NCBI GenBank assembly: GCA_016210665.1
Contig: JACQTT010000013.1
Coordinates: forward strand, 1-17,681
Reading direction: 5' to 3'
Length of the DNA: 17,681 nucleotides
Source of the DNA: Chloroflexota bacterium
Lineage (GTDB): Bacteria > Chloroflexota > Dehalococcoidia > Lucifugimonadales > JACQTT01
Shown here piece after piece: positions 1 to 17,681 of the stretch. Made by a program: the position numbers and the translations under genes. The stretch's first letter is position 1. Every line of letters starts with the position of its first letter. The notes beneath the pieces are model-generated. The model searched no databases and was not told where the DNA came from. It worked only from the letters and a program-made list of their open reading frames with translations.

Positions 1-284
1 CCCAGGTCGAGGTCGGAACCGAATGTATAAATAACTATCAAATATGAAATGTAAATAGCTTCCCATCCCATCACGGATCCCACCAAGCCCTCACCGGAAT
101 CATCAAAAAAAGCGGGCAGAAAAAAGGACGATACGAATAGCACCACCGGGACTAGCGCAACTGCAAAATAGGCCAAGGCGCTTAACCTCCTCTCTTTAAG
201 CTGATTCGAACGTTGTCTAAGGCCAATCGCAATCGCTCCCAGAGCAGCGGCTACCAAGATGATGCCAAGAATAAGCATTAACAT
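1..284 (-). CDS. Polytopic membrane protein, 5' part only (runs off the window start). The N-terminal ~30 codons, RBS and promoter are duplicated from the flotillin gene. The remainder is paralogous to the 2572-3288 membrane protein.
   Basis: I reverse-complemented 1-300 by hand. ATG at 282-284 is preceded by GGAGAAGGGAACG (strong SD) and there is no stop through position 1. The translation is MLMLILGIILVAAALGAIAIGLRQRSNQLKERRLSALAYFAVALVPVVLFVSSFFLPAFFDDSGEGLVGSVMGWEAIYISYLIVIYTF... The first 22 aa are near-identical to the flotillin N-terminus (MLTLILGIILVAAALGAIAIGLGQ). From RRLSA onward it aligns with the 2572-3288 protein (RRRWAAGLSLPLLGLILASFFLPTISVCEGSG), sharing the SFFLP and SG motifs. 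It is not in the ORF track because it lacks an in-window stop. Confidence 0.5.
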   Translation of the reverse strand, partial: MLMLILGIILVAAALGAIAIGLRQRSNQLKERRLSALAYFAVALVPVVLFVSSFFLPAFFDDSGEGLVGSVMGWEAIYISYLIVIYTFGSDLDL

Positions 285-383
285 CGTTCCCTTCTCCTAG
301 CATGTTCGAGTCATCACTATTGTCATGGAAGAGCGCCCTTTCCAGCAGGTGCAAATGAGCTGTTTGTGTATGGTACCGGCTAC
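285..383. promoter_or_regulatory. Copy A of a triplicated intergenic regulatory module, upstream of the 1-284 membrane-protein gene.
   Basis: Positions 190-383 match 2055-2240 (copy B) at about 85-90% nucleotide identity, including the motif CAGGTGCAAATGAGCTG at 345-361. The motif lies 61 bp upstream of the ATG, the same spacing as in copy B. Confidence 0.6.
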
Positions 384-393
384 GAAGCAAGAT

Positions 394-425
394 GGCAAGG
401 CAGCCAGCTTACCGACCGCCTTGCC
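394..425 (-). terminator. Candidate hairpin terminator downstream of the flotillin gene.
   Basis: A perfect 8-bp inverted repeat GGCAAGGC (394-401) / GCCTTGCC (418-425) with a 16-nt loop lies 29 nt past the flotillin stop on the minus strand. It is followed by AUCUUGCUUC, which is only moderately U-rich. The loop is long, so the call is weak. Confidence 0.25.
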
Positions 426-453
426 ATACAAGAAACCGCCTCTACCTCTCCTC

Positions 454-2148
454 CTATTTGTCCTGACTAGAAAACAACGTTCCTTTTGCCAGGTTGCTAG
501 CTCCTCCGAGGATTGCCGCAAAGCCCTCCATTCCCGTAGAGCTTCCTTCGACCATGATGACGGGAACCTTCACGATGTTAGGGTTCTCGATGGCTGCCTC
601 AAGGGTCTTGATTAGCGCTTCAAGTTGTAACACCCTGTCCTGGCCAAGCACCTTAACCTGGGCGTCCTGTCCCCGTGCGATGGCAGTCAACTCGGCCTCG
701 CGGCCTTCACCGCGAAGCTGTGATGCCAGTTTGTTCTGTACCTCGATTTGCACACCTACCTGAGCAGCCACCAGTTGGTCCTGCTGGTCAGCAGTTGCCC
801 TGGCCTGTTCCGTCAGAACCCTCTGTTCTTGCGCCCGCTGCTCCCGTGCATAGGTCTTTTCTAGCTCCTCGGCCAGTTGCCTGCGAGCGAGGGTCACCAG
901 CAACTCTGGCGGGATGACAGGGTCGCCAAAGCGGACCTCCTTGACAGAGATTCCCGCCTTTCTTCCTTCCGGGATGATAGTCTGTTTCACGAGTTGCTCA
1001 AGTTCTGCCCGTTGGTCCTGAAGCTCAAGCACCTTTCTGCCCCTCTCCCCAATCACATTGCGGACCACGCTTCCCAAGGTCCGAGTCAAGATCCTTTGCT
1101 CCACTTCAGTCAAACCCCCGACTGCGGCAACAACAAAGGGCGCATCCTCAGGCGCTATCTGAACGATCAATCGGACCTCAATCGGGACCGTCCAGCCCTC
1201 GACTCGGACAGGAATTGCGCCTTCGACGGCCGTTGGTGGAACAGGAACATTTTGCTTGACCTCATCCTGAGTGATCCTACCTTCCTGATCCAGCTTCAAG
1301 TTAATAACTCGCCTCTCGTATCCACCTGAGTACTCCCACGCATAGACCCGAGTACTTATGTTAATCACCTCGTAAGCATTCGCGTTCAGATAATACCTCC
1401 CAGGTAACAGCGGCTCGTTCCATACTCCAATGCACCCTTTTGGTACCAGGGGAATCGCCAGAGTTTGCTCTTGAGGTTGTGGTACCGGTATGCAGTTGTC
1501 AGACGTCTGAACGTTCGACTTTACCACGCCCACACTACCAATCGCAATGTTGGTGACTGGCTTTACTACGACATCGAACAGGTAGCGATGTACGCGATAC
1601 TTCCCAGGAGGAAGAACTGACAGTTGGGGTCCTTTCTGTCCGCCGTTGTGTAGGAAATACTCCGCTTCAAGCATTTTCTCGAACTCTGCTTCAGGCCATT
1701 CATCTGCCAGGATCTGTCCCGGGCGGAGGGGGGCTCCGTCCCGGGCTAACAGCAACCCGTATGAGTCAACGGGGATCTCGACAACTGAAAACTTTTCCAC
1801 CTTGTACAGCACGTTGAGAAGGGGACTGAACTTAAATCCAGGTGATAATACTTCCGCTTGAGGTCCAGCCTGCCCCTTGAAGGCTATGATCTGCCCAGGA
1901 GGCATCGATAAGCCACCGTAGACGCGCTTCAAGTGTCCCATTTCATCGGCTCCAACGACCGTGAAAGACGTCCCCAGCAGGAGCCCCAACCCCACTAAGC
2001 CAAACAAGACGACACCAACTGAAACACCGTATAGCAGCCAGACCTGGATATCCTTATTTACAAGCCTATTCAAACGTTGTCCAAGGCCAATAGCAATCGC
2101 TCCCAGGGCAGCGGCAACCAAGATGATGCCAAGAATAAGCGTTAACAT
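454..2148 (-). CDS. Flotillin-family SPFH/band-7 membrane protein (YqiK/FloT-like).
   Basis: A 564-aa ORF with ATG at 2146-2148 preceded by AAGGAGGGAACG. It has two N-terminal hydrophobic helices. SPFH-like segments are present (PGFKFSPLLNVLYKVEKFSVVEIP; RLIVQIAPEDAPFVVAAVGGLTEVEQRILTRTLGSVVRNVIGER). The long Glu/Ala/Gln-rich coiled-coil tail (AEELEKTYAREQRAQEQRVLTEQARATADQQDQLVAAQVGVQIEV...) is typical of bacterial flotillins. Confidence 0.85.
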   Translation of the reverse strand: MLTLILGIILVAAALGAIAIGLGQRLNRLVNKDIQVWLLYGVSVGVVLFGLVGLGLLLGTSFTVVGADEMGHLKRVYGGLSMPPGQIIAFKGQAGPQAEVLSPGFKFSPLLNVLYKVEKFSVVEIPVDSYGLLLARDGAPLRPGQILADEWPEAEFEKMLEAEYFLHNGGQKGPQLSVLPPGKYRVHRYLFDVVVKPVTNIAIGSVGVVKSNVQTSDNCIPVPQPQEQTLAIPLVPKGCIGVWNEPLLPGRYYLNANAYEVINISTRVYAWEYSGGYERRVINLKLDQEGRITQDEVKQNVPVPPTAVEGAIPVRVEGWTVPIEVRLIVQIAPEDAPFVVAAVGGLTEVEQRILTRTLGSVVRNVIGERGRKVLELQDQRAELEQLVKQTIIPEGRKAGISVKEVRFGDPVIPPELLVTLARRQLAEELEKTYAREQRAQEQRVLTEQARATADQQDQLVAAQVGVQIEVQNKLASQLRGEGREAELTAIARGQDAQVKVLGQDRVLQLEALIKTLEAAIENPNIVKVPVIMVEGSSTGMEGFAAILGGASNLAKGTLFSSQDK

Positions 2149-2357
2149 CGTTCCCTCCTTCTAATATATTCGAGTCACCACTATTCTCATGGCAGAGAGC
2201 CCTTGCCAACAGGTGCAAATGAGCTGTTTGTGGGTGGTACACGCTACTGCTTTTTCGTGGTACATCTGAACCTGGTATCGCGGGCTGCCCTGCGATGTAC
2301 AATGGATGGCACAGAGGTCTCTTGTCTCCGAGTTATGCACCGCTGAGGCAATGGGCT
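2149..2357. promoter_or_regulatory. Copy B of the regulatory module. It is a divergent promoter region: the left half matches copy A and the right half matches copy C.
   Basis: 2055-2240 matches 190-383. 2200-2527 matches 3322-3652 at about 92% identity. The motif CAGGTGCAAATGAGCTG at 2210-2226 lies 62 bp upstream of the flotillin ATG. A -10-like TACAAT at 2298-2303 faces the plus strand. Confidence 0.6.
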
Positions 2358-2527
2358 ATGGAAAAGAGTTCAGCCCCCAATTACGCCGTGTTTGAGGACT
2401 ACCGCTCCAGCCAGGGCATCGCCGTGGTGGTTCGGTGGTTTATGCTGGCAACCTGGCTCACCCTCATCAACATCCGTACCCAGGAGTCTAACCTTCCCTA
2501 TCTCAACACTATGGGCACGGCCCTGTC
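2358..2527 (+). pseudogene. Truncated remnant (about 57 codons) of a paralogous DesK-type sensor kinase gene.
   Basis: Track ORF 2295-2609 gives MYNGWHRGLLSPSYAPLRQWAMEKSSAPNYAVFEDYRSSQGIAVVVRWFMLATWLTLINIRTQESNLPYLNTMG... This is co-linear with the N-terminus of the kinase at 3478, including the RBS and ATG. Homology stops abruptly at about 2527 and the ORF then reads into unrelated sequence that overlaps the 3' end of the minus-strand gene. Of 12 nucleotide differences from the intact gene, 8 are synonymous. Confidence 0.6.
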
Positions 2528-2571
2528 GGTGACATGCCTCAACCTGAATCAGAGAACTGCCTATGGATCCA

Positions 2572-3288
2572 TCAGTCCTTTCCTAACCAACTCGCGCAAG
2601 GCACGATGAACAGTAAGATTAGTACGGCTGCCCCAAACATGTCCCAACCGATCAAAAGGCCGCCTATACTCCCCACTCCAATTATCGTGAAGAGTACCCA
2701 TGACGCGGCTAGACACCCGTACGCCCCCAGGAAGTAGCTCCAACGGTGCCAGCCACCAACTGTGGCGATTCCTCGTACTAAGAGAAGGCAGGCCATGATT
2801 CCAGTTGTTAGCAGATAGGTGAGAACGAAACCCTCTCGGCCCCAATCGACTTTGTCAAGGTCCTTCAGGGGAACTCCAAGGGTCACCCAGCTGACCCAAA
2901 ACCATGTGCCGAGGGAGAGAACAAGTGCAGCCGAGGCGGCCCCTCCGAAAACGCGCCCAGGACGATGTCGTCGGACCAAGGCCCCTACCGTGGATAGTAG
3001 AAGAATCAGCGCGGCTAAATAAAGAGGATAGCCTTGCCAGTCCAAGTCGTAACCACGAAGTTCAGTAACTCCGCTCCCCTCACATACTGAGATAGTCGGC
3101 AGGAAAAAGCTTGCGAGGATGAGGCCCAGGAGGGGCAGAGACAGGCCTGCGGCCCAGCGTCGGCGGACCTCTGGCCCGCCTGACGGAATGTCCTCCTTGC
3201 CCTCTACTGATGTGGAGGCCCCAACTCCTGTCGTGGGTCCCGTTTCAGCCATCATTGACATCTCCTGGTTCATGTGAGCACCTCGCAT
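2572..3288 (-). CDS. Polytopic integral membrane protein with about 6 TM helices and unknown function. It is paralogous to the 1-284 gene.
   Basis: A 238-aa ORF, almost entirely hydrophobic helices (LPLLGLILASFFLP, YPLYLAALILLLSTVGALV, AASAALVLSLGTWFWVSWVTLGV, GFVLTYLLTTGIMACLLLV, CLAASWVLFTIIGVGSIGGLLIGW, AAVLILLFIVPCASWL). The real start is probably the internal Met at 3273 (GAGGTG-CTCAC-ATG) or a later one. This would put the shared motif at -58, matching copies A and B. Confidence 0.7.
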   Translation of the reverse strand: MRGAHMNQEMSMMAETGPTTGVGASTSVEGKEDIPSGGPEVRRRWAAGLSLPLLGLILASFFLPTISVCEGSGVTELRGYDLDWQGYPLYLAALILLLSTVGALVRRHRPGRVFGGAASAALVLSLGTWFWVSWVTLGVPLKDLDKVDWGREGFVLTYLLTTGIMACLLLVRGIATVGGWHRWSYFLGAYGCLAASWVLFTIIGVGSIGGLLIGWDMFGAAVLILLFIVPCASWLGKD

Positions 3289-3477
3289 AGTGGAACTGTG
3301 CTTATTGTCTGCGAGTCCAGACCCTTCTAACAGGTGCAGATGAGCTGATTATGACCGGTACGGGCTACTGCTTCTTCGTGGTACATCTGAACCTTGTGTA
3401 GGTCTGCCTGCGATGTATAATTGATGGCACAGAGAGGTCTCTTATCTCCGAGTTATGCACCGCTGAGGCAATGGACT
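3289..3477. promoter_or_regulatory. Copy C of the regulatory module, with a sigma70-like promoter for the kinase/regulator operon.
   Basis: Motif CAGGTGCAGATGAGCTG at 3331-3347. A -35-like TTGTGT (3394-3399), a 16-nt spacer and a TG-preceded TATAAT (3416-3421) predict a transcription start near 3428. The RBS GAGG (3464-3467) lies 10 nt before the ATG at 3478. Confidence 0.5.
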
Positions 3478-4722
3478 ATGGAAAAGAGTTCAGCCCCCAA
3501 CTACGCCGTCTTCGACGACTATCGCTCCAGCCAGGGCATAGCCGTGGTGGTCCGGTGGTTCATGCTGGCAACCTGGCTCACCCTCATCAACATCCGTTCC
3601 CAGGAGCCCAACCTTCCCTATCTCAACACGATGGGCGCGGCCCTGATCATACTCAACGGCTACGTCCATTGGAGGATTTGGAGGGGCAGGCCCATTACAT
3701 GGCCCTACGTCCTGGCCCTGAGCCTGATGGACCTCACCATTATCACGGCGGGCATCATGGTCACCAGCAGGTTCGGGAACACCTATTATATCTTTTACTA
3801 TCCGGCGCTTCTGGGCGTAGCCCTCATCTTCCGCCGCCGGGTCAGCTTTGCCATTGTCACCATTATCGCTGGGTTCTATGCCGGCATCAGCCTGACTATG
3901 AAGCCAGGATTAGACACATCGGTGCTCTTTGACGGCGACGAGAAGGAGCTCACCGTCAGGGTGGTATGCATGTTCGCCGTCGTGGTAGCTGCGAATCTCA
4001 TGACTCGGTTGGAGAGGCAGCGGCGAGCCGAGGCGGTGGAGGCGGAACGGATCCGCATGGAGGAGAACCTTCTGCTCCAGCGCAGAGCGGAGGAGGCAGA
4101 GCGGGAGGCACAGGAGGAGCGGATTCGCATCTCCCAGGAGATTCACGACGGGGCGGCCCAGTCGGCCTACATGCTCAGCCTTGGCCTTGAGACTTGCTGT
4201 CACATGGCCGGCCAAGAGGCCCCCCAGCTCCACGACAGGCTGAAGGCACTCCACGCAGAGTCCAAGCAGGCCCTGTTGGAGCTTCGCTATCCAATCAACC
4301 TCGGGCCCCTGTTCGAAGGCAGAGGCCTGACACAGATCCTGGCAGACCACCTGACGAATTTCAGGGCCATAACTTCTATCCCCACGCATTTCTCCATGAC
4401 CGGACAGGAGACGGAGTTGCCACTAGCCACCCAGCAGCGGCTGTTTGCGCTAGCCCACAATGCCCTGACCAATGCCTACAAGTATGCCCAGGCTACCGAG
4501 GTCAATGTGGAGCTGGTCTGCGATGACAAGACGCTAAAGCTTTCCATCAGCGATAACGGGGTGGGCATGGACACTACCGCACTGGCCGCCTCCTCCGGCC
4601 ACGGGATACGGAACATGCGCCGCACCGCAGAGGAGATGGGAGGGGCTCTGGATATAACCAGTGCTCCGGGGAAGGGTACAATAGTGAGCGTAGCCCTCTC
4701 TCTTTCGGGAGGTGCGCCGTGA
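3478..4722 (+). CDS. Membrane-embedded sensor histidine kinase of the HisKA_3 family (DesK/LiaS/NarX-type) with a HATPase_c domain.
   Basis: The N-terminal part has about 5-6 TM helices with no obvious extracytoplasmic domain. It has a coiled-coil linker, an H-box RISQEIHDGAAQS typical of HisKA_3, and C-terminal N/G boxes (LAHNALTNAYKYA ... ISDNGVGM ... GHGIRNMRRTAEEMGG). The track ORF begins at 3421 (TTG). I prefer 3478 because the predicted -10 places the transcription start downstream of the 3421/3424 start candidates. Confidence 0.85.
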   Translation: MEKSSAPNYAVFDDYRSSQGIAVVVRWFMLATWLTLINIRSQEPNLPYLNTMGAALIILNGYVHWRIWRGRPITWPYVLALSLMDLTIITAGIMVTSRFGNTYYIFYYPALLGVALIFRRRVSFAIVTIIAGFYAGISLTMKPGLDTSVLFDGDEKELTVRVVCMFAVVVAANLMTRLERQRRAEAVEAERIRMEENLLLQRRAEEAEREAQEERIRISQEIHDGAAQSAYMLSLGLETCCHMAGQEAPQLHDRLKALHAESKQALLELRYPINLGPLFEGRGLTQILADHLTNFRAITSIPTHFSMTGQETELPLATQQRLFALAHNALTNAYKYAQATEVNVELVCDDKTLKLSISDNGVGMDTTALAASSGHGIRNMRRTAEEMGGALDITSAPGKGTIVSVALSLSGGAP

Positions 4723-5384
4723 GCCCTCTGAGAGTCATGATTGTGGACGATCACCAGGTCGTGAGAGAGGGATTGCGAAAGGTCCTGGAAGTAGAGGAAA
4801 ACATCGAGGTAGTGGGGGAGGCGGGGGATGGGAGGCAAGCTGTGGACAAGGCACAGGAGCTCAAGCCGGACGTGATCCTCATGGACGTAATGATGCCTGG
4901 CATGAATGGTATAGATGCCTGCCAGGAGATCAAGGGTCTCTTACCCCGTACCGCCGTGGTGATGCTCACCGCCTCAGGGCTAGCGGAGTCCGTTACTGCT
5001 TCCCTAGTGGCGGGCGCTCAGGGCTACGTGCTGAAAGTCGTTGGGCGGGACGAGTTGGTCCGCGCCATCAGAGCCGTAGGGCGAGGCGAGTCTATCCTGG
5101 ACCCTTCCGTGACCAGGATAGTCACTGAAGGCTTCTCTCGCCTGGTGGGCCAGGAGAGGCAGCGAGAGGTGGAGCGACTTACCTCCCGAGAGAAGGAGGT
5201 GCTGCTCCTGGTGGCCCGGGGAGAAACCAACAGAGAGGTGGCCGAGCGGCTGGTCATCAGCGAGTTCACGGCAAGAAATACGGTGAGCAATATCCTGGGT
5301 AAGCTTGGGCTGAGGAATCGCTCTGAACTGGTGCGTTGGGCCTTGAACAACAGGGTGGTAATGGAGCCTGGTAACTACTCGTAA
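4719..5384 (+). CDS. NarL/FixJ-family response regulator (receiver domain plus LuxR-type HTH).
   Basis: GTG start at 4719 preceded by GGAGGTG, overlapping the kinase stop by 4 nt. It has an MIVDDHQVVREGL receiver with the conserved D (ILMDVMMPGMNG). The C-terminal LuxR HTH reads LTSREKEVLLLVARGETNREVAERLVISEFTARNTVSNILGKLGL. Confidence 0.9.
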   Translation: MSPLRVMIVDDHQVVREGLRKVLEVEENIEVVGEAGDGRQAVDKAQELKPDVILMDVMMPGMNGIDACQEIKGLLPRTAVVMLTASGLAESVTASLVAGAQGYVLKVVGRDELVRAIRAVGRGESILDPSVTRIVTEGFSRLVGQERQREVERLTSREKEVLLLVARGETNREVAERLVISEFTARNTVSNILGKLGLRNRSELVRWALNNRVVMEPGNYS

Positions 5385-5619
5385 CCGAGCAGAGATGGGG
5401 GGATTCAGACGGAGGAGCGCCGACACCCCCTGGAGCGTCGGACCCAGAACTTATAGGAGATGGGGGCAGCGCGATGGAATCACCTCGAACACATCAGTCC
5501 TTAGCCTCTGAAAAGCCGAGGCATTTCAGACCTAAAAGACATGTTGGAAAGCTTAATTAAGGACAAGGGGGGTAAGAAGCGGGTTGCCAAAACGGCATAA
5601 TAGCCCTCGGTCAGCCCTC

Positions 5620-7158
5620 CTAACGCTGCCACACTATTTCGCCCCCTAACACCGTCATCATCACCCTTATATCCCTTATATGCTCTGGTTCTACCATGGT
5701 GGGGTCTCCATCCAGAAGCGCCAGGTCAGCCAGTTTACCGACCTCTACAGTACCCCGCTCCTTCTCCTGAAATGCGGCGTATGCACCGTTAAGGGTATAA
5801 GCCTTTAACGCCTCCAGGGGTGAACTGGCCTCCTCAGGAGACAGGAGTCGCCCCGTCTCTGCCATTCTCGTGACCGCTGCGTATAACCCTAAAAGAGGAT
5901 TTGGAGGCACCACCGGGGCGTCGGAGCTTGCCGAGGGTGCAAGGCCAGCTTTAGCGAAGGATCCCATCCTGTAAAGCCAGGGCTGCATCTCTTGCGGCAC
6001 TTCGGCAAGATAGCGCTCACCACTGTGATAGATGAAGGCTGGCTGGGTTACGACCAGGAGGGCTTTACCCTTTAGCTCCCTCAAGACCTCTGGCGGACAC
6101 TCCGAGCAGTGTTCGATCCTGTGTCGGTGATCTCGCCTGGGAACCCGCTGGATCGCTTGGGAGAGGGCTTTGCCGGCCGCAAGCACCGCCTGAGCTTCGA
6201 CGGCGTGTATCGCCACCTGAAAACCTTGCTCATGGATTCTAAGAATCGTATGCCATAGCTCATCTTCGGGCGGATTGAGGGCCCCGGAGGTAGCCGTCAG
6301 CACAACCTTGACGGCCCCTAGGCTCAGTTTCTCGTCGCCTCCTTTTACAGCGAGGTCGGCCTCGAGAAACTCCTGGATATGTTTAGCGCCTATCATAAAG
6401 GTAACCCTTGGCAAAAAGATTCCCTCCTCCTTTATTCGGCGAAAGGCGAGCCACCGCTCCAGGGAGTTGGAGGGTGTCGCATCGTGAACCGAGGTAACGC
6501 CAAAAGACAGGAGGCCGCGGTTGGCCTCTCGCAGGCCTTCGGCCATCTGAGCCTCGCCTAAAGGTGGCATTACCCTCTCCATATAATCGTTCATCTCCAG
6601 GAGAAGGCCGGTCGGCTCACCCGTTTGAATGTCCCGCTCGATTACGCCACCGGGAGGCTCCTCGGTCTTGGAAGTGATGCCCGCCAGGGACAGGGCAAGG
6701 CTGTTGAGAACGAGGGCGTGCCCTGAGCGATGGCTCAGGCGAACAGGGCGGTCAGGCGATGCCTTGTCCAGATCCCACCTGGTAGGGTGACGCCGTTCCT
6801 CCAGGTAGAACTCGTTATATCCTGCGCCCCGTACCCACTGGTCAATAGGAGCGGCCGAGGCTCCTTTTCTCAAAGCCGCCTGGATGTCTTCAATGGACCT
6901 GACGGCGGCGGGGCTGCAGTCCATCGCCATAAGACTGGAAGCGTAGGCCAGGACGTGGCAGTGGGCGTCTATAAAGCCGGGTACCAGGGTGTAGCCCTGG
7001 CAGTCTATGGCCCGGGTATTGGGCCCTTTTAGCAGGCTTAGATCGCTCTTCTCCCCGACCCAGGATATGCGTCCGTTGCTGATGGCGACCAGCTCGGTTC
7101 TGGCGTTATCATCCCTTAAAGGGATGACGTTGGCGTTGTAGAGGATGAGGTTGTGCAT
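5620..7158 (-). CDS. Metal-dependent amidohydrolase (amidohydrolase_3 / YtcJ-like family).
   Basis: A 512-aa ORF with GFIDAHCHV metal-binding motif near the N-terminus and a C-terminal ...DLALLDGDP...GGEIVW. It starts 15 bp downstream of the metallopeptidase gene on the same strand, so the two are probably an operon. Confidence 0.85.
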   Translation of the reverse strand: MHNLILYNANVIPLRDDNARTELVAISNGRISWVGEKSDLSLLKGPNTRAIDCQGYTLVPGFIDAHCHVLAYASSLMAMDCSPAAVRSIEDIQAALRKGASAAPIDQWVRGAGYNEFYLEERRHPTRWDLDKASPDRPVRLSHRSGHALVLNSLALSLAGITSKTEEPPGGVIERDIQTGEPTGLLLEMNDYMERVMPPLGEAQMAEGLREANRGLLSFGVTSVHDATPSNSLERWLAFRRIKEEGIFLPRVTFMIGAKHIQEFLEADLAVKGGDEKLSLGAVKVVLTATSGALNPPEDELWHTILRIHEQGFQVAIHAVEAQAVLAAGKALSQAIQRVPRRDHRHRIEHCSECPPEVLRELKGKALLVVTQPAFIYHSGERYLAEVPQEMQPWLYRMGSFAKAGLAPSASSDAPVVPPNPLLGLYAAVTRMAETGRLLSPEEASSPLEALKAYTLNGAYAAFQEKERGTVEVGKLADLALLDGDPTMVEPEHIRDIRVMMTVLGGEIVWQR

Positions 7159-7173
7159 TGAAAACCAGCGATG

Positions 7174-9036
7174 TTACGGAAGCCGATAATTGAACTCGAT
7201 GCTGTTTATGGCTCTCAGAACCATGCTTTCCCGGGCACTTATCTCTGGGATCATCCCATTGGCAGCGATGTGTTTGGAATCGTCGCGGCTCTCCTGGTAT
7301 CGTAGCTCAAGGGTAAGCCACTGAACAAATTTATCCATAAAGTTGGTTACCTGACTATGGGTCTCGACCATGTTAGATGGAGGCTTGATCTTGGAAATCT
7401 GGATTTGCAGCGTCTGGGCCTTAGAGACCAGGGGTAAATAGTCCGCCGCCTGCGCGCCTTGCAGTATCTGTGCCCTTCGCTCAGAAACCGATTGCACCTC
7501 TTTCATCACCAAGTCGATCTCCGTAACGTAAGTCTTAACCTCTAAACGTAGGGGGTCTTCCCACGACGTTAGCCCCAGGAGGAAGTTCTTCTCAAACTGC
7601 TCGTATGATACGCCCGTTGAGGATTGAATCGCTGCGCTTAAACTATCTCCCATTCGCAGTCTTTCTAGAAGAGAAACCAGAGCCTTCTCGCCGAACCTTT
7701 CTATTAGGTAGCGAATGACCATATATGCTTCCGAATACTGAAGACTCACCTTTTCTTTGTCCGTTTGCTTGTTCCATGTGCGTTGGTCCTCAATCTCACG
7801 CAAGGGAAAGATAGTCCCTTTGGCTGCTGCAACCTTGACTCTGTCTGCCTTAGTGTATATATCACGCCTTACCACATCGGGTCTCTGGGACTCAAGCCCC
7901 AGAGCCACTTCATAGAAGGTGGCCGCACCCTCGTTGACCCAGGCCGGAAGGGTAGTATTCGGGAAACTCTCGTCCAATAGGAGGTGCACGTACTCGTGGG
8001 TGACAGTCATTTGCGCCGCACTCCTGAAAAAGTCCGTTCGGACGTAGATCCCCCTTCCAGCCGCTCCGCGCCAATAAAAACCGGCTTCCCAAGTCACATC
8101 AGTTCCTATCGAGGTGCCGGCCTGCTTCAGCAGGTTCTCGTTGCCAAGAAGGTACAAATCTGGGATTGAGGTGCTGGACAGGCCGAGTATCTGGCTGAGA
8201 CGTTCTACGACTAATGCCAGATGTCCTTGAAGGTCGAGGGCCAGAGAAGCCGGTACCAGGGATGAATAGTACGAATCTGTCACAAGTCCGTCATAGCGTC
8301 GAAACTCCACTCCCGCCGCCTTCAGCTCCCTTACCTCTAGCTGCAACTGGGATACAGGGTAGGTAGCGCTGAAAACCTCTTCTCCAACGGTCAAACGCAT
8401 GTTCCATATACCCTCACGATCCTTGGTGGCAATCCGAGTCAAAAAAGCCGACCCGGCAGCATCGGCCCAATAATCCCGCTTGGTCACGGGCTTTCCATTG
8501 ATCTGGGCAAATGTGGCTTCATTTTCTGTAACCCACTCAGCGGATACTCCGTTGGGCTCTACGAACTCCGCGGTGAATCGTTGCCACGGCTGTAGGCCTC
8601 TAAGAGTAAACACTATGTCCCGACCCGCAATCGGCCTACCTGGCTCTATTTGCAGCGTCAGGGATTTGCCCAGGGAGGTGGAGGCGATCCCCGATGGGGG
8701 AGGAACTAACGCAATCAGCGCAGGCAATTGAACTGGGGTAGGTGTAGGCTGTGGGGTGGGTCTCGGTTGGGCAGTGGCTGTGGGTTGCGGCGTCGGTGTG
8801 GATTGCGGTGTGGGCGTTGGAGCGGGCGTGGCCGTAGGTTGAGGCGTAGGCATAGGTTGAGACGTCGGTGTGGGTTGCGGCGTGGGCGTTGGAGCAGGAG
8901 TGGCCGTAGATATGGTAGCCTTTATCAAGGCAACCACTGTGAGTGGAATATCGGGAGTCGGCGTGGGTTCGCCAGTATTACAGGCAACGAGAATACCCAA
9001 TAGTAAGAAAAACCCTGGTAGGCGGTGAAATTTCAT
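7174..9036 (-). CDS. Secreted lipoprotein zinc metallopeptidase, gluzincin / peptidase-MA-like (M1-type HExxH...WxNEGxA), with a Pro/Thr-rich linker.
   Basis: The track ORF extends to 9102. I place the start at ATG 9034-9036 (MKFHRLPGFFLLLGILVAC, a classic lipoprotein signal peptide with lipobox LVAC). The mature protein begins with a TPxPTPxP linker and then a domain containing MTVTHEYVHLLLDESFPNTTLPAWVNEGAATFYE. This is HEYVH plus WVNEGAA, which resembles the M1 motifs HExxH-x18-E and WLNEGFA. Confidence 0.75.
   Translation of the reverse strand: MKFHRLPGFFLLLGILVACNTGEPTPTPDIPLTVVALIKATISTATPAPTPTPQPTPTSQPMPTPQPTATPAPTPTPQSTPTPQPTATAQPRPTPQPTPTPVQLPALIALVPPPSGIASTSLGKSLTLQIEPGRPIAGRDIVFTLRGLQPWQRFTAEFVEPNGVSAEWVTENEATFAQINGKPVTKRDYWADAAGSAFLTRIATKDREGIWNMRLTVGEEVFSATYPVSQLQLEVRELKAAGVEFRRYDGLVTDSYYSSLVPASLALDLQGHLALVVERLSQILGLSSTSIPDLYLLGNENLLKQAGTSIGTDVTWEAGFYWRGAAGRGIYVRTDFFRSAAQMTVTHEYVHLLLDESFPNTTLPAWVNEGAATFYEVALGLESQRPDVVRRDIYTKADRVKVAAAKGTIFPLREIEDQRTWNKQTDKEKVSLQYSEAYMVIRYLIERFGEKALVSLLERLRMGDSLSAAIQSSTGVSYEQFEKNFLLGLTSWEDPLRLEVKTYVTEIDLVMKEVQSVSERRAQILQGAQAADYLPLVSKAQTLQIQISKIKPPSNMVETHSQVTNFMDKFVQWLTLELRYQESRDDSKHIAANGMIPEISARESMVLRAINSIEFNYRLP
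8735..8912. repeat. Degenerate tandem nucleotide repeat that encodes the Pro/Thr-rich linker of the metallopeptidase.
   Basis: Reiterated GGTGTGGGTTGCGGCGTGGGCGTTGGAGC(A/G)GG(A/C)GTGGCCGTAG-type units, for example 8806-8838 and 8868-8910. They encode PTPTPQPTATPAPTP-type repeats on the minus strand. Confidence 0.7.
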
Positions 9037-9146
9037 TCTGAATTCACCCTGTTCAAGCTGGTAGCGCAAGACGTAAAGAGTGGAGGCAAATGACTGAATC
9101 ATATCACATCCCTACTAGCCCAAGGCATCGAAGAGCTCCTGTTCCC

Positions 9147-9219: not shown

Positions 9220-10263
9220 ATGGAGATGGGCGTTGGCCTGGACGCCACCCTGAACCTCACCTGGGATGAGCAGGCCCGGGTTGCCCAGGAGGCGGCAAGG
9301 CTGGGCTACACCAGCATCTGGACAAACGAAACCGCCGGACATGACGGCTTTCAGGTCTGCGTCCACCGCTGGGCGGCGTCGAAGGCTACCATTGAGAGAG
9401 GGCTGACCACAGGCATAGCCGTCTCACCTGTCTATCTGCGAACCCCTCTAGCCCTGGCAATGAGTGCCGGGACTACAAGCGAGTTGACGGGAGGGAGATT
9501 TATCCTGGGCATTGGCTCTGGTAGTATCTATCGTGCGGCGATCCGCCGTTCTTTAGGATTGCCACAGCTCGCAACCCTATCTCTTATGAAGGACTACCTG
9601 ACCATACTCCGGGATCTGTTGGGAGGCAAAAACGTGACCTACGAAGGCAAGGCATTGGCCTTGCAAGGCGTAAGGCTCGCCCTCCAGCCATCGCCCAACA
9701 CACCCATCTATCTTGGCGCCCTGGGGCCGAAGATGCTTCGCATGGCGGGCGAGCTCGCCGATGGAGCGGTCCTTAACTGGTGCACCCCTGAGCAGGTCTC
9801 CTGGAGCCGGGGGCAGATCTCCGAAGGAGCTGCCCGAGCCGAGCGTGACCCATTCAACGTAAAGGTAGTCGAATATATCCGGGTGTGTATAGACGAGGAT
9901 ATAGACCTGGCACGGCACTCCCTGGCCAGGTCTGTTATACCTTATGCCCTTTCTCCCCGCGGCGCTACCGAGGGAGAAAGGGGGCTGGGATATAGGGCAC
10001 ACTTCGAGCGCATGGGCTTTGGCAAGGAGCTGTCCAACCTGGAGAGGATGAGAGACGGAGGAGCACCCTCCGAGAAGGTGGCCGATGCCTTTCCTCCCGA
10101 TCTTTTGCAAAAGGTTGGCTATTATGGTTCATCAGCCGGGGCCGCTAAAGCATTGAAGAAGCTGGCAGAAGGTCTGGATGTCGCCATAGTTCGCGTCGTC
10201 GCGGCTCGCCCCGGGGTGAGCTCGGTGCTTTCCGCCCTCCACGCCTGCGGCCCGGTCTCGTAA
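9220..10263 (+). CDS. Luciferase-like monooxygenase (LLM) class flavin- or F420-dependent oxidoreductase.
   Basis: The track ORF starts at 9196, but AAGGAG (9206-9211) sits 8 nt before ATG 9220 (MEMGVGLDATLNLTWDEQ...). It has the LLM signature GGRFILGIGSGS and a TIM-barrel-like length of about 348 aa. Confidence 0.8.
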   Translation: MEMGVGLDATLNLTWDEQARVAQEAARLGYTSIWTNETAGHDGFQVCVHRWAASKATIERGLTTGIAVSPVYLRTPLALAMSAGTTSELTGGRFILGIGSGSIYRAAIRRSLGLPQLATLSLMKDYLTILRDLLGGKNVTYEGKALALQGVRLALQPSPNTPIYLGALGPKMLRMAGELADGAVLNWCTPEQVSWSRGQISEGAARAERDPFNVKVVEYIRVCIDEDIDLARHSLARSVIPYALSPRGATEGERGLGYRAHFERMGFGKELSNLERMRDGGAPSEKVADAFPPDLLQKVGYYGSSAGAAKALKKLAEGLDVAIVRVVAARPGVSSVLSALHACGPVS

Positions 10264-10343
10264 GACCCTAGAAAACTGGACAAGGAAGCTCAGAAACTTA
10301 TAGTCGAGTGATTGCTGGTAGCTATAGAAAGAGAGGAATATCT

Positions 10344-11051
10344 ATGGTTGAACAGGAGATGTATCGCCGAGCGATGGTAGTGGTTGCCCACGCCGATGAC
10401 GCGGAGTTCGGGTGTTCAGGCACGGTGGCCCTTTGGGCGCGACAAGGAGCAGAGGTAATCTACGTCATATGCACGGACGGAAGCAAAGGAAGCGGCGATC
10501 CTGAAATGACCTCCTCCCGTTTGGTGGAGATACGACGCCAGGAGCAACTCGACGCTGCCAGGGTCCTGGGAGTAAAGGAGGTAGTATTTCTAGGCTACGA
10601 AGATGCCATACTTCAGCCCACCCTTGAGTTGCGGCGAGATATTTGCCGGCAGATTCGCCGATACAAGCCTCAGGTCCTGATCTGTATGAGCCCGGTAAGA
10701 GATCTGGAAAGCGCCAGCTACCTGGGTCACCCGGACCACTTCGCCTCAGCAGAAGCGGCCCTGTCGGCGGTGTTCCCCGCAGCCCGGGACCGATTGACCT
10801 TTCCTGAACTCATGGAGGAGGGTCTGGAACCCCATAAGGTAGAAGAGGTGCTGGTGATGAGCAGGACTAACCCTAACAAGTGGATTGATGTTACCGATAC
10901 CCTAGATATCGCCATGGAGGCCATCAAATGCCACCGCAGCCAAGTGAATCCCGAAGACGTCGGGAACTTTCTGCGAGGGTGGCGAGAGGAGATGGGAAAA
11001 GAGAGGGGCATGAAATACGCCGAAGCCTTCAGACACTTTCAACTGCGCTGA
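10344..11051 (+). CDS. PIG-L / LmbE-family zinc-dependent N-acetyl-glucosaminyl deacetylase (MshB/BshB-like).
   Basis: Motifs MVVVAHADDAEFG (the AHPDDE motif) and GHPDHFA (the HxDH motif). The track ORF starts at 10308, but GAGAGGA (10331-10337) precedes ATG 10344. Confidence 0.8.
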   Translation: MVEQEMYRRAMVVVAHADDAEFGCSGTVALWARQGAEVIYVICTDGSKGSGDPEMTSSRLVEIRRQEQLDAARVLGVKEVVFLGYEDAILQPTLELRRDICRQIRRYKPQVLICMSPVRDLESASYLGHPDHFASAEAALSAVFPAARDRLTFPELMEEGLEPHKVEEVLVMSRTNPNKWIDVTDTLDIAMEAIKCHRSQVNPEDVGNFLRGWREEMGKERGMKYAEAFRHFQLR

Positions 11052-11094
11052 AAAGACACCATGGACGGGACGGTGTAACAGACTCTGTAGGAGC

Positions 11095-12090
11095 TTACAA
11101 AAACAGCTCTCCTAGCTTCTCAAAAGCTGCTCCTAACAATATACAGAAGGGAAAAGTCACTATCCATCCCATGACAACCCCCCTCACTACCCCCCAACGC
11201 ACCGCCGAAAGGCGCCTAGTACCCCCCTGGCCCATGATGGTGGAGGAGATGACGTGAGTTGTACTAAGGGGAAAGCCGAGTCGGGTTGCAGCCTCAATGA
11301 CGAAAGCAGCAGCGCTCTCGGCGGCAAAGCCGTGAATAGGCTGCATCTTTACAATGCGAACCCCTAGGGTCCTCACTACACGCCATCCTCCTGCGTAAGT
11401 TCCCAGAGCCATCACCAGGGCAGACAGGAGCTTGACCCACAAGGGGATGTGGAAGGTGTCGATGGCTCCCCCGACGAACAGGGCGAGGGCAACAACCCCC
11501 ATGGTCTTCTGGGCATCATTAGAACCGTGGCTGAAGGCCATGGCCGCGGCAGAAAGGATCTGTAGTCGTCCAAAAGCGCCGCTTATGAGGGAAGGACTGC
11601 GGCGGCGTAAAACCCAGTAGAGGCCCAGCATGACCAGATAACCTATGCTAAATCCTATGAGGGGTGCAAAAAAGAGGCCCAGTAGTACAGTCCTAATCCC
11701 AGCAGGCTGTAAGGCACCTAGCCCTGCCGTGCTAAATGCCGCCCCCACTAGACCCGCTATGAGGCTGTGGCTGCCGCTGACGGGCATTCCCAAACGAGAG
11801 GCGAGGAAGACCCATACTGCCGCCGCCGCCACCGCCGCTGCAATAGTCGTCAAGGTGATCTCTTCGGGCGATATGATCCCCTTGCCTACCACCTTGGCCA
11901 CGGCCGTCCCCGAGAGGGCTCCGACTAGGTTCAACGACGCCGCCATGACAACGGCTAGTATGGGTGACAAGACCCGCGTGGAGACTACTGTGGCAATAGC
12001 ATTGGCTGCATCGTTGAAGCCGTTAGCAAAATCGAAAATGAGGGCAAGGACAATGACAACTATCAGAAAGACTGTTGAGGTCTCAGTCAC
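11095..12090 (-). CDS. pit: Inorganic phosphate transporter, PiT (PHO4) family.
   Basis: Both PiT signatures are present: GFNDAANAIAT near the N-terminus and GSNDAQKTMG in the second half. It has about 10 TM helices. The start codon is GTG: the forward strand reads CAC at 12088-12090 and is called M by the track. Confidence 0.85.
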   Translation of the reverse strand: MTETSTVFLIVVIVLALIFDFANGFNDAANAIATVVSTRVLSPILAVVMAASLNLVGALSGTAVAKVVGKGIISPEEITLTTIAAAVAAAAVWVFLASRLGMPVSGSHSLIAGLVGAAFSTAGLGALQPAGIRTVLLGLFFAPLIGFSIGYLVMLGLYWVLRRRSPSLISGAFGRLQILSAAAMAFSHGSNDAQKTMGVVALALFVGGAIDTFHIPLWVKLLSALVMALGTYAGGWRVVRTLGVRIVKMQPIHGFAAESAAAFVIEAATRLGFPLSTTHVISSTIMGQGGTRRLSAVRWGVVRGVVMGWIVTFPFCILLGAAFEKLGELFL

Positions 12091-12448: not shown

Positions 12449-13774
12449 CTACTGAGCAGGAGGCGGCAGCACCTTGCGCGCCTGGCGGATGACGCCTAGT
12501 AAAAGAAGGGCCACTATAACAGCGACCACGCCAAGGGCCGCAGGTAAGAGCCAGGGGAACCGCTCGCTGACGGGAGGCCTCTTCTCCACATAGTCGGGAT
12601 TGGTGTTCTGGGGACCCAGGGCAGCTTGCGCCAACTCCTCGGTCTCGAGGTAGGGAAAGACCCGCTCGATATCATAAGAAGGCCGCCGGGCTTCGAGATT
12701 ACCGTAGTAGAGCTTGTACAACTGCCCGGGGTCTGTCGTGTAGAGGAGGCTGCGACGATAGCTCCATGCATCTACACCTTCGATATGAAGAGGCGGGCTG
12801 TCCTCGTCGTGGATGACCAGGCGTAGATAGCGTAAGGTGGTCTCGGGATAGACGATGGCGAGGTTACCTCCAACAAACTTCGGGGTGTCGTAGGCGTAGA
12901 TGCCAGCCCTCGACTGGGCGGTGCTCCACTCCTTACGGTCAGCACTCTCCTCTATGGTGACCTCTCGATAGAAGTTGACCTCGGACACCCTAACCTGAAC
13001 GCGATGGCTAGGAAGCCCTGGGCTACCCGTGTCCATCTCCACGAGGGTGGCGCGGCGATCTCTGTCGTAGCTAGTGCTTACCATAGATACGGGCCAGGAC
13101 ACCTCTTGTGCTGGGGTAACCTTTATAAAGAAAGTGGTAGCGCCGAGTACGTCCAGGGGGCCTTCACCCTCGTCGGCGACCTTAACCCGCAGATAACGCG
13201 CCGTGCTGGCTGGATACCCTATCCTTGTGTTGCTGGCGCTAAAGTTTCGCTCCTTGACGGTGAAATCATAGATTTCCTGCTTGCCTACCTCAGCCCATGT
13301 ACCTCCATCGTTACTGGTTTCCACGGTGGCTGTACGGCGGAAGTTGATGGCGGGAGTCTGGAACTCGATCTCGTTGTGTAGGAGTCCATCGCGCCCCAGG
13401 TCGGCGATGAATGTGGTGTAGAGGTCAGGAACGTAACCCTTGTCCTGTAAGGTCACTGGGAAGGACGTAAACTGACGCTCGCCCCTACTGACCTGGAACT
13501 TGTACGGAACCTCCGTGCCAGCGGTGGAGATGATGCGAAGGTCAACCAGGCCGAGGGCCGAGCCAGCAAACACCTCGCGATCTGGGACGAGCTCCACAAG
13601 ACCCTTGCTAAGGAGGTTAGAAGGGGAAGCAATGGGCTTGAAGTACTGCCAGTCACGGAGTAAGAAGTCAGCCGCCACGCTGGAGGCGAGCAAGGCCGTC
13701 AGAACGACGGCAGCGGTGATGGATCTGGCAACTAGAGCGACCCTACTTCTCAACCAGGAACCCCCTGATGGCAC
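12449..13774 (-). CDS. DUF3999-like protein: N-terminal signal/anchor, a large beta-rich extracytoplasmic domain, and a C-terminal TM anchor.
   Basis: A 441-aa ORF with N-terminal hydrophobic segment ITAAVVLTALLASSVAA and C-terminal anchor FPWLLPAALGVVAVIVALLLLGVI followed by RQARK. The overall length and topology match my recollection of Pfam DUF3999. It overlaps the upstream DUF2339-like gene by 32 nt, so the two are probably translationally coupled. The family assignment is from memory and is not searchable here. Confidence 0.65.
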   Translation of the reverse strand: MPSGGSWLRSRVALVARSITAAVVLTALLASSVAADFLLRDWQYFKPIASPSNLLSKGLVELVPDREVFAGSALGLVDLRIISTAGTEVPYKFQVSRGERQFTSFPVTLQDKGYVPDLYTTFIADLGRDGLLHNEIEFQTPAINFRRTATVETSNDGGTWAEVGKQEIYDFTVKERNFSASNTRIGYPASTARYLRVKVADEGEGPLDVLGATTFFIKVTPAQEVSWPVSMVSTSYDRDRRATLVEMDTGSPGLPSHRVQVRVSEVNFYREVTIEESADRKEWSTAQSRAGIYAYDTPKFVGGNLAIVYPETTLRYLRLVIHDEDSPPLHIEGVDAWSYRRSLLYTTDPGQLYKLYYGNLEARRPSYDIERVFPYLETEELAQAALGPQNTNPDYVEKRPPVSERFPWLLPAALGVVAVIVALLLLGVIRQARKVLPPPAQ

Positions 13775-15704: not shown

Positions 15705-15880
15705 TCCTGTCTCCTTACCCTAGTCTTCGTAGCTTACTGCACCCTCGCAGCCTCGTCAATCATTATGTCTTCAAGCAAGATAAAAACAATCGCCCCTTGA
15801 TGCGATTCACGGGGCGGTTGCCTTTAAGAATGGATGTCTGTTTGGGGATTATATACTTGTCGGGGTTTGAGTGGTAGACT

Positions 15881-16603
15881 ATGGTGGGCGGCATGAACGC
15901 CCGCCTCGCACTCTACATAATTGGGACAATTCTTATCGTGCTAAGCGTCATCGAGAATGCGCTGCCGGAGGCTATCGGAGGCATACTTGCCGGGCTGCTT
16001 ACCATCTTCACAGTTGCTGTCCTATCGCATTGGCGCCTGCATCGCCCTTTCAATTTTAGATTCTCCCTTGACCCGTATCGTTTTAGTCCGCAACTAGTCA
16101 GGGAGCGCAAACATGCAACGCATTGGGAGATCGCAGTCAATCAGGAAGCGGAATTACTACTGAGAATCATGCCCAGGAAGGGAACTCACTTCACTCGCGT
16201 AGGCGTTCGCTGTGTGGAACGGTACTTCACATGGAGATGGGACATTCTGCGCCCGCGAGTTTGGGCATGGCGGAATGCTCCGACATCAGCAATTGAGATT
16301 AGAGCGGTGCGCGACATTGACTCCGAAAGCATCAATTCGGCGACCCACCAATTAGGTACGCAGTTCAGGACTTGGCCTGATGGCGTGGGTGGAATGTGGG
16401 GAGAATATCACCCACCTTACCATCGGACTATGGAGGACTCGTTATGGCTCTGCGTCAAGTTGGTCGCATACAGACCATGGACGGGGCACATATCCTTCCA
16501 GGGGCATATTGATGAGGACCATCGTGCCTATAGCCGTCGAGCGCTTTGGGCTATTGAGCAACCAGACGTTCATATGGCAAGTTATCACTGCCTAGAAGCC
16601 TAG
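15881..16603 (+). CDS. Hypothetical passenger protein inside the IS. It has an N-terminal 2-TM hairpin and a W/R/H-rich soluble domain of unknown function.
   Basis: A 240-aa ORF lying entirely between the inverted repeats. It has TM segments LALYIIGTILIVLSVI and IGGILAGLLTIFTVAVL and no recognisable family motif. Its 3' end overlaps the convergent transposase gene by 53 nt. The true start may be the second Met at 15893. Confidence 0.4.
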   Translation: MVGGMNARLALYIIGTILIVLSVIENALPEAIGGILAGLLTIFTVAVLSHWRLHRPFNFRFSLDPYRFSPQLVRERKHATHWEIAVNQEAELLLRIMPRKGTHFTRVGVRCVERYFTWRWDILRPRVWAWRNAPTSAIEIRAVRDIDSESINSATHQLGTQFRTWPDGVGGMWGEYHPPYHRTMEDSLWLCVKLVAYRPWTGHISFQGHIDEDHRAYSRRALWAIEQPDVHMASYHCLEA

Positions 16604-17441: not shown

Positions 17442-17453
17442 TGGAGTCTCCTA

Positions 17454-17621
17454 TGACTAAGCGTAAGAAGAAAGACGTAACTGAAATGACGACGGACGAA
17501 CTAGCCCGCCATGTATTCCCAAAGAAGGTTGTAGCTGAGCTAAAGCGGGTCGCTCATCAAGGAGATGAGAAGGACGATTCGGAGGGGAAACCTGAGCAAA
17601 GTGCATCATCACGCAGTTAGT
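17454..17621 (+). CDS. Possible small basic protein (55 aa) encoded divergently inside the transposase leader. Very tentative.
   Basis: ATG at 17454 preceded by GGAG (17443-17446). The translation is MTKRKKKDVTEMTTDELARHVFPKKVVAELKRVAHQGDEKDDSEGKPEQSASSRS. It is below the 60-aa cutoff of the ORF track and has no recognisable family. Confidence 0.2.
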
Positions 17622-17681
17622 GTATCACAGGTATTATACCCTGTCAAGTATATAAGCCCCCTTGTATCATTGGTTTAGAGG

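Follow-up and report, generated by a model that had tools for sequence, protein, structure and literature searches.

The window analysed here is a whole contig of 17,681 nucleotides (JACQTT010000013.1) from a Chloroflexota bacterium, and the copy counts and repeat scans reported below refer to that contig. Near its start lie the genes of a flotillin-like protein, of two membrane proteins (memA and mem238) and of a sensor histidine kinase and response regulator, and among them a short sequence core, which is the subject of this work, is found three times (copies A, B and C; Table 1). As will be argued, this core is probably an operator of the adjacent regulator.

The kinase is identical in sequence to NCBI protein HY666_00825 (from a Chloroflexi metagenome-assembled genome); its N-terminal part shows five to six hydrophobic segments with short loops in the hydropathy profile, and the solved-structure matches of its core include VraS and DesK. 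A preliminary description of this DNA had assigned the gene at 4719 to the NarL/LuxR-family regulators, and the receiver and GerE domains found with Pfam agree with this assignment; the closest solved structures of the regulator are VraR (E=1e-43), NarL, DevR and DesR. With the starts chosen here, neither the flotillin-like protein nor the regulator has an exact database record.

Table 1. Features of the window, and the window segments that correspond to the closest relative (L001)
Feature	Position	Strand	Description
memA	1-284	-	membrane protein gene; ATG 282-284; runs off contig end
copy A	198-383		flotillin-type leader codons, 5' untranslated region, promoter, box 1, secondary half-site (alignments)
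junction J1	~197/198		memA ~codon 9 joined in frame to flotillin codon ~29; deletion-type
predicted -10 of memA	319-324	-	GACAAT; predicted start near 312
box 1, copy A	348-361		GGTGCAAATGAGCT; 2 mismatches to GGTnCAnnTGnACC
junction JA	inside core of A		M1 left side + M2 right side; duplication-type
secondary half-site, copy A	372-383		GGTACCGGCTAC
hairpin	394-425	-	GGCAAGGC...GCCTTGCC; after flotillin stop, terminator-like
flotillin gene	454-2148	-	flotillin-like SPFH/Band_7 protein, 564 aa; PF01145, E=1.3e-11; N-terminal membrane helix
copy B	2062-2525		divergent flotillin/kinase intergenic region + kinase codons 1-56; L001-collinear position (BLAST)
predicted -10 of flotillin	2183-2188	-	GAGAAT; predicted start near 2176
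box 1, copy B	2212-2225		GGTGCAAATGAGCT
secondary half-site, copy B	2236-2247		GGTACACGCTAC
box 2, copy B	2259-2272		GGTACATCTGAACC; perfect dyad
truncated kinase relic	2358-2609	+	codons 1-56 (to 2525) kinase-homologous, 27 unrelated codons, stop 2607-2609
junction J2	2525/2526		kinase codon 56 + DNA 46 nt beyond mem238 stop; duplication-type
mem238	2572-3288, likely start 3273	-	polytopic membrane protein; no Pfam match
predicted -10 of mem238	3304-3309	-	GACAAT; predicted start near 3297
box 1, copy C	3333-3346		GGTGCAGATGAGCT; core 3324-3370 matches L001 copy upstream of mem245
junction JC	inside core of C		M2 left side + M1 right side; deletion-type
secondary half-site, copy C	3357-3368		GGTACGGGCTAC
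box 2, copy C	3380-3393		GGTACATCTGAACC; perfect dyad
predicted kinase promoter	3394-3421	+	TTGTGT (-35), 16-nt spacer, TATAAT (-10); box 2 abuts -35
kinase gene	3478-4722	+	sensor histidine kinase, 414 aa; HisKA_3 + HATPase_c (Pfam)
regulator gene	4719-5384	+	response regulator; receiver PF00072, E=2.4e-31; GerE helix-turn-helix PF00196, E=1.6e-15
segment	229-376		L001 3770-3917 (BLAST); left part of copy A = flotillin 5' end + M1
segment	340-2516		L001 2022-4211 (BLAST); M2, flotillin, M1, kinase 5' end, collinear
segment	2572-3273		L001 1217-1920 (BLAST); mem238
segment	3324-3370		L001 2021-2067 (BLAST); copy C core = M2
segment	3381-5359		L001 3958-5934 (BLAST); kinase promoter, kinase, regulator

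A sequence core present in three copies

The 17-mer CAGGTGCARATGAGCTG of the core has three exact matches in the contig, all on the plus strand (346-362, 2210-2226 and 3331-3347), and no further match when up to three mismatches are allowed; shuffled sequences contain 0.12 on average, and three matches were reached in 0 of 200 shuffles. The limits of the repeat were set with a repeat finder, a three-way alignment and self-BLAST. Copy A (198-383) and copy B (2062-2247) are 87.6% identical over 186 nt, which comprise the first 29 codons (90.8%), the 5' untranslated region and promoter (82%) and the core (89.5%). Copy B (2200-2525) and copy C (3322-3645) are 88.7% identical over ~328 nt, which comprise the core, the kinase promoter and kinase codons 1-56 (92.3% in these codons and 87% from box 2 to the ATG). 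The overlap common to the three copies is only ~45 nt (340-385, 2204-2249 and 3325-3370), and directly outside the repeat limits the identity is 39-53%.

The three homologous stretches with a shared core, as first described, are therefore confirmed, and the distances given for the core upstream of the start codons (61-62 bp in A and B, 58 bp in C) agree with the 61, 61 and 57 nt that we measured (in C, to Met 3273). Other details had to be corrected. The ribosome-binding sites of A and B, said to be identical, are only similar (ctaggagaagggaacg vs ttagaaggagggaacg), and the first ~22 codons, said to be shared, match closely and differ by three synonymous changes and one non-synonymous change, which would be compatible with translation of both leaders. 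Copy B, which was thought to face the kinase promoter, faces instead a truncated duplicate of kinase codons 1-56.

Gene order in relatives and in the window

Orthologous loci were collected by a protein-guided scan of representative genomes. In the closest relative after the genome itself (L001, kinase 81% identical), a flotillin gene and a kinase/regulator pair diverge from a common intergenic region, and the flotillin gene is followed, on its own strand, by genes for a 245-aa protein (mem245) and a 155-aa protein, which are the orthologues of mem238 and memA, respectively; this order is seen in three independent assemblies (L001-L003). The flotillins of the window and of L001 are 84% identical, and mem238 is 62% identical to mem245, which in L001 sits between the flotillin and 155-aa genes. 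The hairpin behind the flotillin gene also has a counterpart at the equivalent place in L001 (~2077-2109). In memA, codons 1-29 (198-284) stem from the flotillin leader helix, as established by codon comparison and translation, and the remainder is orthologous to the 155-aa protein (40% identity from ~residue 25, tblastn). Its hydropathy profile contains three hydrophobic segments, and no Pfam or NCBIfam family matches memA, mem238 or the 155-aa protein at E<=0.01.

In L001 the core occurs twice, once between the flotillin stop and the mem245 start (M2, 2022-2067) and once in the divergent flotillin/kinase region (M1, 3881-3926). M1 and M2 share a 39-nt block with 87% identity, their flanks are otherwise unalignable and no coding sequence is duplicated, so that the core is to be seen as a conserved element and not merely as duplication debris. 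Judged from L001, the older order was likely a flotillin gene separated by one box from the divergent kinase and regulator genes and followed, beyond a second box, by mem238 and memA.

Along the window, the sequence passes three times through this L001-type region and shows four new junctions (Table 1), and the right edge of copy A runs on into DNA orthologous to the L001 region 3' of the flotillin gene. Two of the junctions fall inside operator cores, a sign that the two copies may have exchanged DNA by homologous recombination; J1 and J2 are illegitimate. The pattern fits a scenario in which a tandem duplication (from the 3' flank of mem238 to kinase codon 56) would have combined with exchanges between operator copies and one in-frame deletion. 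Since the copies differ by 7-12%, compared with ~20% between the window and L001, these events appear to have taken place after the split from L001, yet not very recently. As a result, mem238 would have moved beside the kinase, memA would have acquired a promoter of its own together with one more N-terminal helix, and a kinase relic would have been left behind.

This relic has a predicted product of 83 aa with one hydrophobic segment (a membrane helix), and its homology to the kinase (89.7% over 58 aa, tblastn) stops abruptly after codon 56. With L001 as outgroup, the relic carries eight derived substitutions (five synonymous, three non-synonymous), compared with two in the functional copy, both synonymous. 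These figures fit relaxed constraint and are too small to exclude a use of the 83-aa product; likewise, the counts of synonymous to non-synonymous changes in the duplicated codons (5:3 in the relic, 3:1 in the leader) are too small to decide on selection. The relic retains an open frame and a perfect box 2 upstream. Additionally, its frame extends 38 nt (2572-2609) into the 3' end of the convergent mem238, which would give an antisense overlap if the relic is transcribed.

The presence of the kinase relic in the right half of copy B points to a duplication at the DNA level rather than to regulatory design. We found what segmental duplication leaves, namely coding fragments that end abruptly (kinase codons 1-56 and flotillin codons 1-29) and a collinear, unduplicated relative. 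The repeat had been interpreted as a promoter-RBS-leader-helix cassette (RBS, ribosome-binding site) copied onto different genes. Copy A is indeed such a unit, fused in frame, but it is not a self-copying cassette; the three copies are probably what remains after an older arrangement, with two putative operators in place, was locally duplicated and recombined.

Predicted operator boxes and promoters

The dyad that is conserved across relatives is GGTnCAnnTGnACC, that is, GGTnCA-nn-TGnACC, 14 bp long. Box 1 is joined, 24 nt after its start, by a secondary half-site of the form GGTAC-N3-(C/T)(T/C)AC in five of five copies (A, B and C of the window plus M1 and M2 of L001, hence two genomes), and both together form a conserved block of ~40 nt. 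B and C contain a second box, absent from the preliminary description, 47 nt downstream of box 1 (start to start). The half-sites proposed previously, CAGGTG and CAGCTC with a 5-bp spacer, are not those that relatives conserve, and they were rejected because L001 M2 fits them at 3 of 6 positions vs 5 of 6 for GGTGCA/GGTTCA.

On the minus strand, 23 nt past box 1, lies a hexamer which reads GACAAT in A, C and L001 M1 and GAGAAT in B; in L001 M2 it reads AACAAT and is one nucleotide further from the box. The spacing between box 1 and this (G/A)A(C/G)AAT hexamer is thus constant (+/-1 nt) in all five copies, the spacers of C and M2 being otherwise dissimilar. On the plus strand, the layout of the predicted kinase promoter, in which the box abuts the -35, recurs in L001 (AGTACATCCGAACC TTGTAT-N17-CATAAT) and in L023 (AGTTCGGATGAACC TTGACC). 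Downstream of box 2 in copy B, TGGTAT and TACAAT (2298-2303), separated by a 19-nt spacer, may represent a weakened, decaying copy of the kinase promoter. With the hexamers taken as -10 elements, the centre of box 1 would fall near -42, and that of box 2 near -41.5, with respect to the predicted starts. A centre near -42 is the classical site of an activator that contacts the polymerase at the -35 region.

In ~430 kb of loci, perfect matches to GGTnCAnnTGnACC are found only at 2259 and 3380 in the window, at 2030 in L001 and at 7862 in L005, all of them within ~140 nt of promoters of this two-component system; for the window, two such sites compare with 0.015 expected from shuffles. Sigma-54 and extracytoplasmic function (ECF)-type promoter readings, judged by eye, were discarded, given that no GG/GC pair occurs at -24/-12 spacing and that the best copies are palindromic. 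A structured RNA (riboswitch or leader) was also rejected, considering that an Rfam search of positions 1-6000 gave no match at E<=1 and that the core lies upstream of the predicted -10 on both strands. A further box-like site with two mismatches, GGTTCATGTGAGCA (3267-3280), covers the likely mem238 start codon at 3273, 66 nt from box 1 and downstream of the predicted mem238 transcription start; it may be due to chance or be a further regulator site.

Among the orthologous loci, a flotillin gene lies near the kinase only in L001-L003, and the box recurs upstream of orthologous operons with other neighbours in L004, L005, L007 and L023. The L005 copy (kinase identity 69%), GGTTCATTTGTACC, is found 139 nt upstream of the kinase gene. 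The L004 copy (kinase identity 70%), AGTTCGTTTGTAAC, is preceded by GGTAC words and stands 74 nt ahead of a Ser/Thr-kinase/OpuAC/VWA gene, the first of a kinase-kinase-regulator operon, and in both loci the box is followed after 23 nt by CAGAAT. Since the module is kept in L004 and L005, where flotillin is not nearby, the element appears to be tied to the kinase/regulator pair and not to flotillin. For 32 orthologous kinases, the 300 nt upstream contain 19 boxes with at most two mismatches, where the frequency in the remainder of these loci predicts 6.4 (binomial p=4.4e-5). A position-weight matrix of the full 46-nt block found one distant copy, in L004, and was less informative than the shorter dyad pattern. 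A 23-mer scan of the representative genomes, which do not include the source genome, gave no match, and a strict 31-nt pattern matched only the L002 contig among the metagenome contigs.

Some of these loci have features of their own. In L004 (1714-8787), a single regulator follows a tandem pair of kinase paralogues (identity to the window kinase, 56% and 70%), the protein at the head of the unit, with the box module upstream, is 1181 aa long, and another box, AGTACATCTGCACC, lies with a AGTACACCCTAC element 3' of the regulator gene (8966-9005), with no convincing open reading frame (ORF) adjacent. L007 encodes, divergently from the kinase, a 90-aa membrane protein with two helices (5459-5731), whose gene has a box pair (AGTACATCCTACCA, 9 nt, GGTGCAGATGTAAC) ~60 nt upstream of its start. 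Near the box in L007 (5805-5830), L031, L025, L032 and L068, 150-250 nt upstream of the kinase, we observed TACCAAC-N4-5-GGTGGTA, which looks like another inverted repeat and is often followed by GGATGTACTAT. Divergent membrane-protein genes seem to be present at several other orthologous loci; the survey of such ORFs upstream of orthologous kinases gave mixed, partly spurious output, was too crude for a count and is not used here as evidence. Finally, L019 holds, 4.7 kb from its kinase orthologue, a gene for a 748-aa DUF2339 homologue (9632-11951) with a box pair (GGTTCATGCGACGG, 8 nt, AGTACATTTGCACC) ~60 nt upstream of the start, which may be a regulon member in L019. In the window, the gene for a zinc-ribbon/DUF2339 membrane protein (13743-15704, minus strand), which overlaps a DUF3999 gene (12449-13774, minus strand), has no box upstream.

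Interpretation, alternatives and known systems

Taken together, these data lead us to regard the shared core as probably the operator of the adjacent NarL/VraR-type regulator in activator-dependent promoters, multiplied by local duplication and rearrangement. The operator would consist of the 14-bp dyad of box 1 and the secondary half-site, in a ~40-nt block of the size expected for two regulator dimers. Box 1 would act from ~42 nt upstream of the predicted starts of memA, flotillin and mem238, and box 2, in the divergent regions, from the -35 of the kinase promoter, with its centre near -41.5. The phosphorylated regulator would then activate its own operon jointly with the three membrane-protein genes. 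A kinase with six membrane segments and no sizeable external loop suggests that the signal may be a perturbation of the membrane or envelope.

The preliminary description had proposed a regulon signature under one regulator. What stands of this proposal is a conserved cis-element tied to the kinase/regulator pair, which is supported by the presence of the core in two otherwise unrelated intergenic regions of L001, by the orthologous operons and by the fixed -10 spacing; the half-sites and the cassette idea do not stand. The arrangement, for which the preliminary description knew no precedent, belongs to a well-known type, the autoregulated two-component operons with divergent or adjacent target promoters that share an operator.

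Several points weigh against our interpretation. The promoter elements are all predicted, with weak -35 regions, and the box 1 copies of the window are poor palindromes, with two mismatches in the right half. The enrichment is merely threefold, with a pattern partly derived from the same loci, some orthologous loci (e.g. L006) have no box, and in L005 the box lies further from a strong TATAAT promoter than in the window. The copy search covers the contig and collections that are without the other contigs of the source genome, and only one contig, of one metagenome-assembled genome, documents the rearranged order. Moreover, the order of events is not recoverable, and the rearrangement requires four events or more, unless a single complex template-switching event produced it.

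Some of these points could also be explained if the core were recognised by another factor (a transcription factor, or an alternative sigma factor with GTACC ... CATTTGCAC as -35/-10) and the kinase and regulator were mere neighbours, which we consider unlikely, if not negligibly so. The poor palindrome of box 1 in the window, the weak sigma-70-type -35 elements and the GGTAC/GTACC words that recur around the box would all be compatible with such a factor, and binding of the adjacent regulator is something that we infer. Nevertheless, the element follows the kinase/regulator pair into unrelated contexts (L004, L005, L007 and L023), its best copies are clean 14-bp palindromes that fit a dimeric helix-turn-helix protein and not a sigma factor, and the -10-like hexamer keeps a constant distance downstream of the box.

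An extension of the operator reading, in which the operator copies served as recombination substrates that rewired the regulon, split the mem238-memA unit and gave memA a signal-anchor helix, and in which the 83-aa relic acts as decoy or modulator of the kinase, is in our opinion unlikely, both for the operator-mediated rewiring and for the retention of a kinase-derived mini-protein.

It is very improbable that the three copies are passive debris of a recent segmental duplication and that the core has no function of its own. The kinase fragment in B and the flotillin fragment in A indicate, in favour of this possibility, that DNA was copied regardless of function; yet in L001 the core is present twice with nothing else duplicated, its ~40-nt block is 87% identical amid diverged flanks, and related boxes occur at more distant orthologous loci.

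We give equally little credence to an assembly chimera of related strains, in which the triplication would exist in no single genome. The sole record is indeed a single short-read contig of a metagenome-assembled genome which ends inside memA, and three independent assemblies (L001-L003) show the unrearranged order. On the other side, the differences of 7-12% indicate separate sequences and not collapsed repeats, the partners at junctions 197/198 and 2525/2526 share no sequence that would give a k-mer graph a reason to join them, the memA fusion is in frame, and each gene is intact exactly once.

Finally, a small mobile element (similar to a miniature inverted-repeat transposable element, or a site-specific cassette) that spreads promoters, with the core as its end or recombination site, can hardly be involved: a short conserved block does occur at several places, two new junctions lie inside it and an IS1595-family transposase is encoded on the same contig, but no terminal inverted repeats or target duplications flank the copies, no more copies exist in the contig or, beyond the L001/L002 relative, in the collections scanned, the position relative to the -10 hexamers is constant, and the insertion sequence is 12 kb away and has different ends.

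If the core is an operator of the adjacent regulator, the system would resemble the Lia/Vra, Des and flotillin-operon families in the way it works but belong to none of them. With LiaFSR/VraSR of the Firmicutes it shares a receiver + GerE regulator (with VraR as best solved match), a HisKA_3 kinase, a predicted positive autoregulation of the operon and few, adjacent membrane-protein targets. LiaS and VraS have two membrane segments, whereas the window kinase has five to six. The phylum (Chloroflexota) is also different, and the predicted targets are an SPFH protein and two unnamed membrane proteins, instead of the PspA-like LiaH or LiaX. No accessory protein of the LiaF/VraT type was found among the window proteins scanned with Pfam and NCBIfam, and the L001 kinase is preceded only by the divergent flotillin gene. 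At the DNA level, the enterococcal LiaR, an activated tetramer with an autoregulated operon, gives a footprint of 44-46 nt, formed by the consensus T(X)4C(X)4G(X)4A and an adjoining secondary site (PMC4482077), and the lactococcal CesR box is TCAGHCTnnAGDCTGA (quoted in PMC4447274). The element described here likewise consists of an inverted repeat with a central C-N4-G and an adjoining secondary site, together ~40-46 nt long. However, GGTnCAnnTGnACC shares only this central C-N4-G with the LiaR and CesR boxes and differs at the outer positions, and it is not a LiaR-type box.

The likeness to DesK/DesR of Bacillus subtilis lies in the multi-pass, membrane-embedded kinase with a HisKA_3 core and no large external domain, in the NarL-type regulator (with a DesR match), in a target promoter that adjoins the operon and in the plausibility of a membrane-state signal, the main predicted target being here flotillin-like. 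The similarity to DesK is limited to the catalytic core (residues 190-399), and there is no desaturase among the window ORFs. As in the flotillin operons (floT/yuaG with the NfeD-type yuaF, and floA with yqeZ), an N-terminally anchored SPFH/Band_7 protein is followed by small membrane-protein genes on the same strand, but neither NfeD nor any other Pfam family matches the membrane proteins encoded downstream. In B. subtilis, floT is part of the SigW regulon, whereas the control predicted here is by a two-component operator, and the link to a kinase is confined to the lineage of the window and L001-L003. A literature search on two-component control of flotillin genes gave no directly comparable case among the papers listed. 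As regards the rearrangement, the collinear paralogous stretches, the faster divergence of the truncated gene, the in-frame fusion and the two junctions in pre-existing ~40-bp repeats are typical of segmental duplication and unequal recombination; here, in contrast, the repeats are (predicted) operator sites, and a regulated promoter would have been redistributed to each gene of the probable mem238-memA unit.

Elsewhere in the window, a Peptidase_MA_2 protein of 642 aa (7174-9102) has an N-terminal membrane anchor followed by a low-complexity stretch rich in proline and threonine (TPTPQPTPTP repeats). At 15844-17660 lies a probable IS1595-family insertion sequence with inverted repeats of 23 nt (15844-15866 and 17638-17660, 87% complementary). 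Its transposase gene (16551-17441, minus strand; DDE_Tnp_IS1595 and zinc ribbon) is overlapped by the 3' end of an ORF for 240 aa (15881-16603, plus strand) without family match.

No new principle emerges from this locus, autoregulated two-component operons with shared operators and segmental duplications being both well known, and the repeat is most likely a real but fairly ordinary regulatory feature. The rearrangement suggests that two 40-bp operator copies can mediate local gene shuffling and leave behind a fusion gene and a relic. If the unlikely operator-mediated rewiring were true, the locus would be a natural case of regulon evolution driven by binding sites, and an uncharacterised family of six-helix kinases would control flotillin in Dehalococcoidia-like Chloroflexota. 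What is gained is a testable predicted operator, GGTnCAnnTGnACC with a secondary half-site 24 bp away, and a small predicted regulon that comprises the operon itself, the flotillin-like SPFH gene and two genes for unnamed membrane proteins. Both belong to a two-component family with wide occurrence in uncultured Dehalococcoidia and SAR202 Chloroflexota, of which no studied member is known. That a membrane-embedded kinase should control a flotillin would be in keeping with a response to membrane stress, but the link is limited to a narrow lineage.

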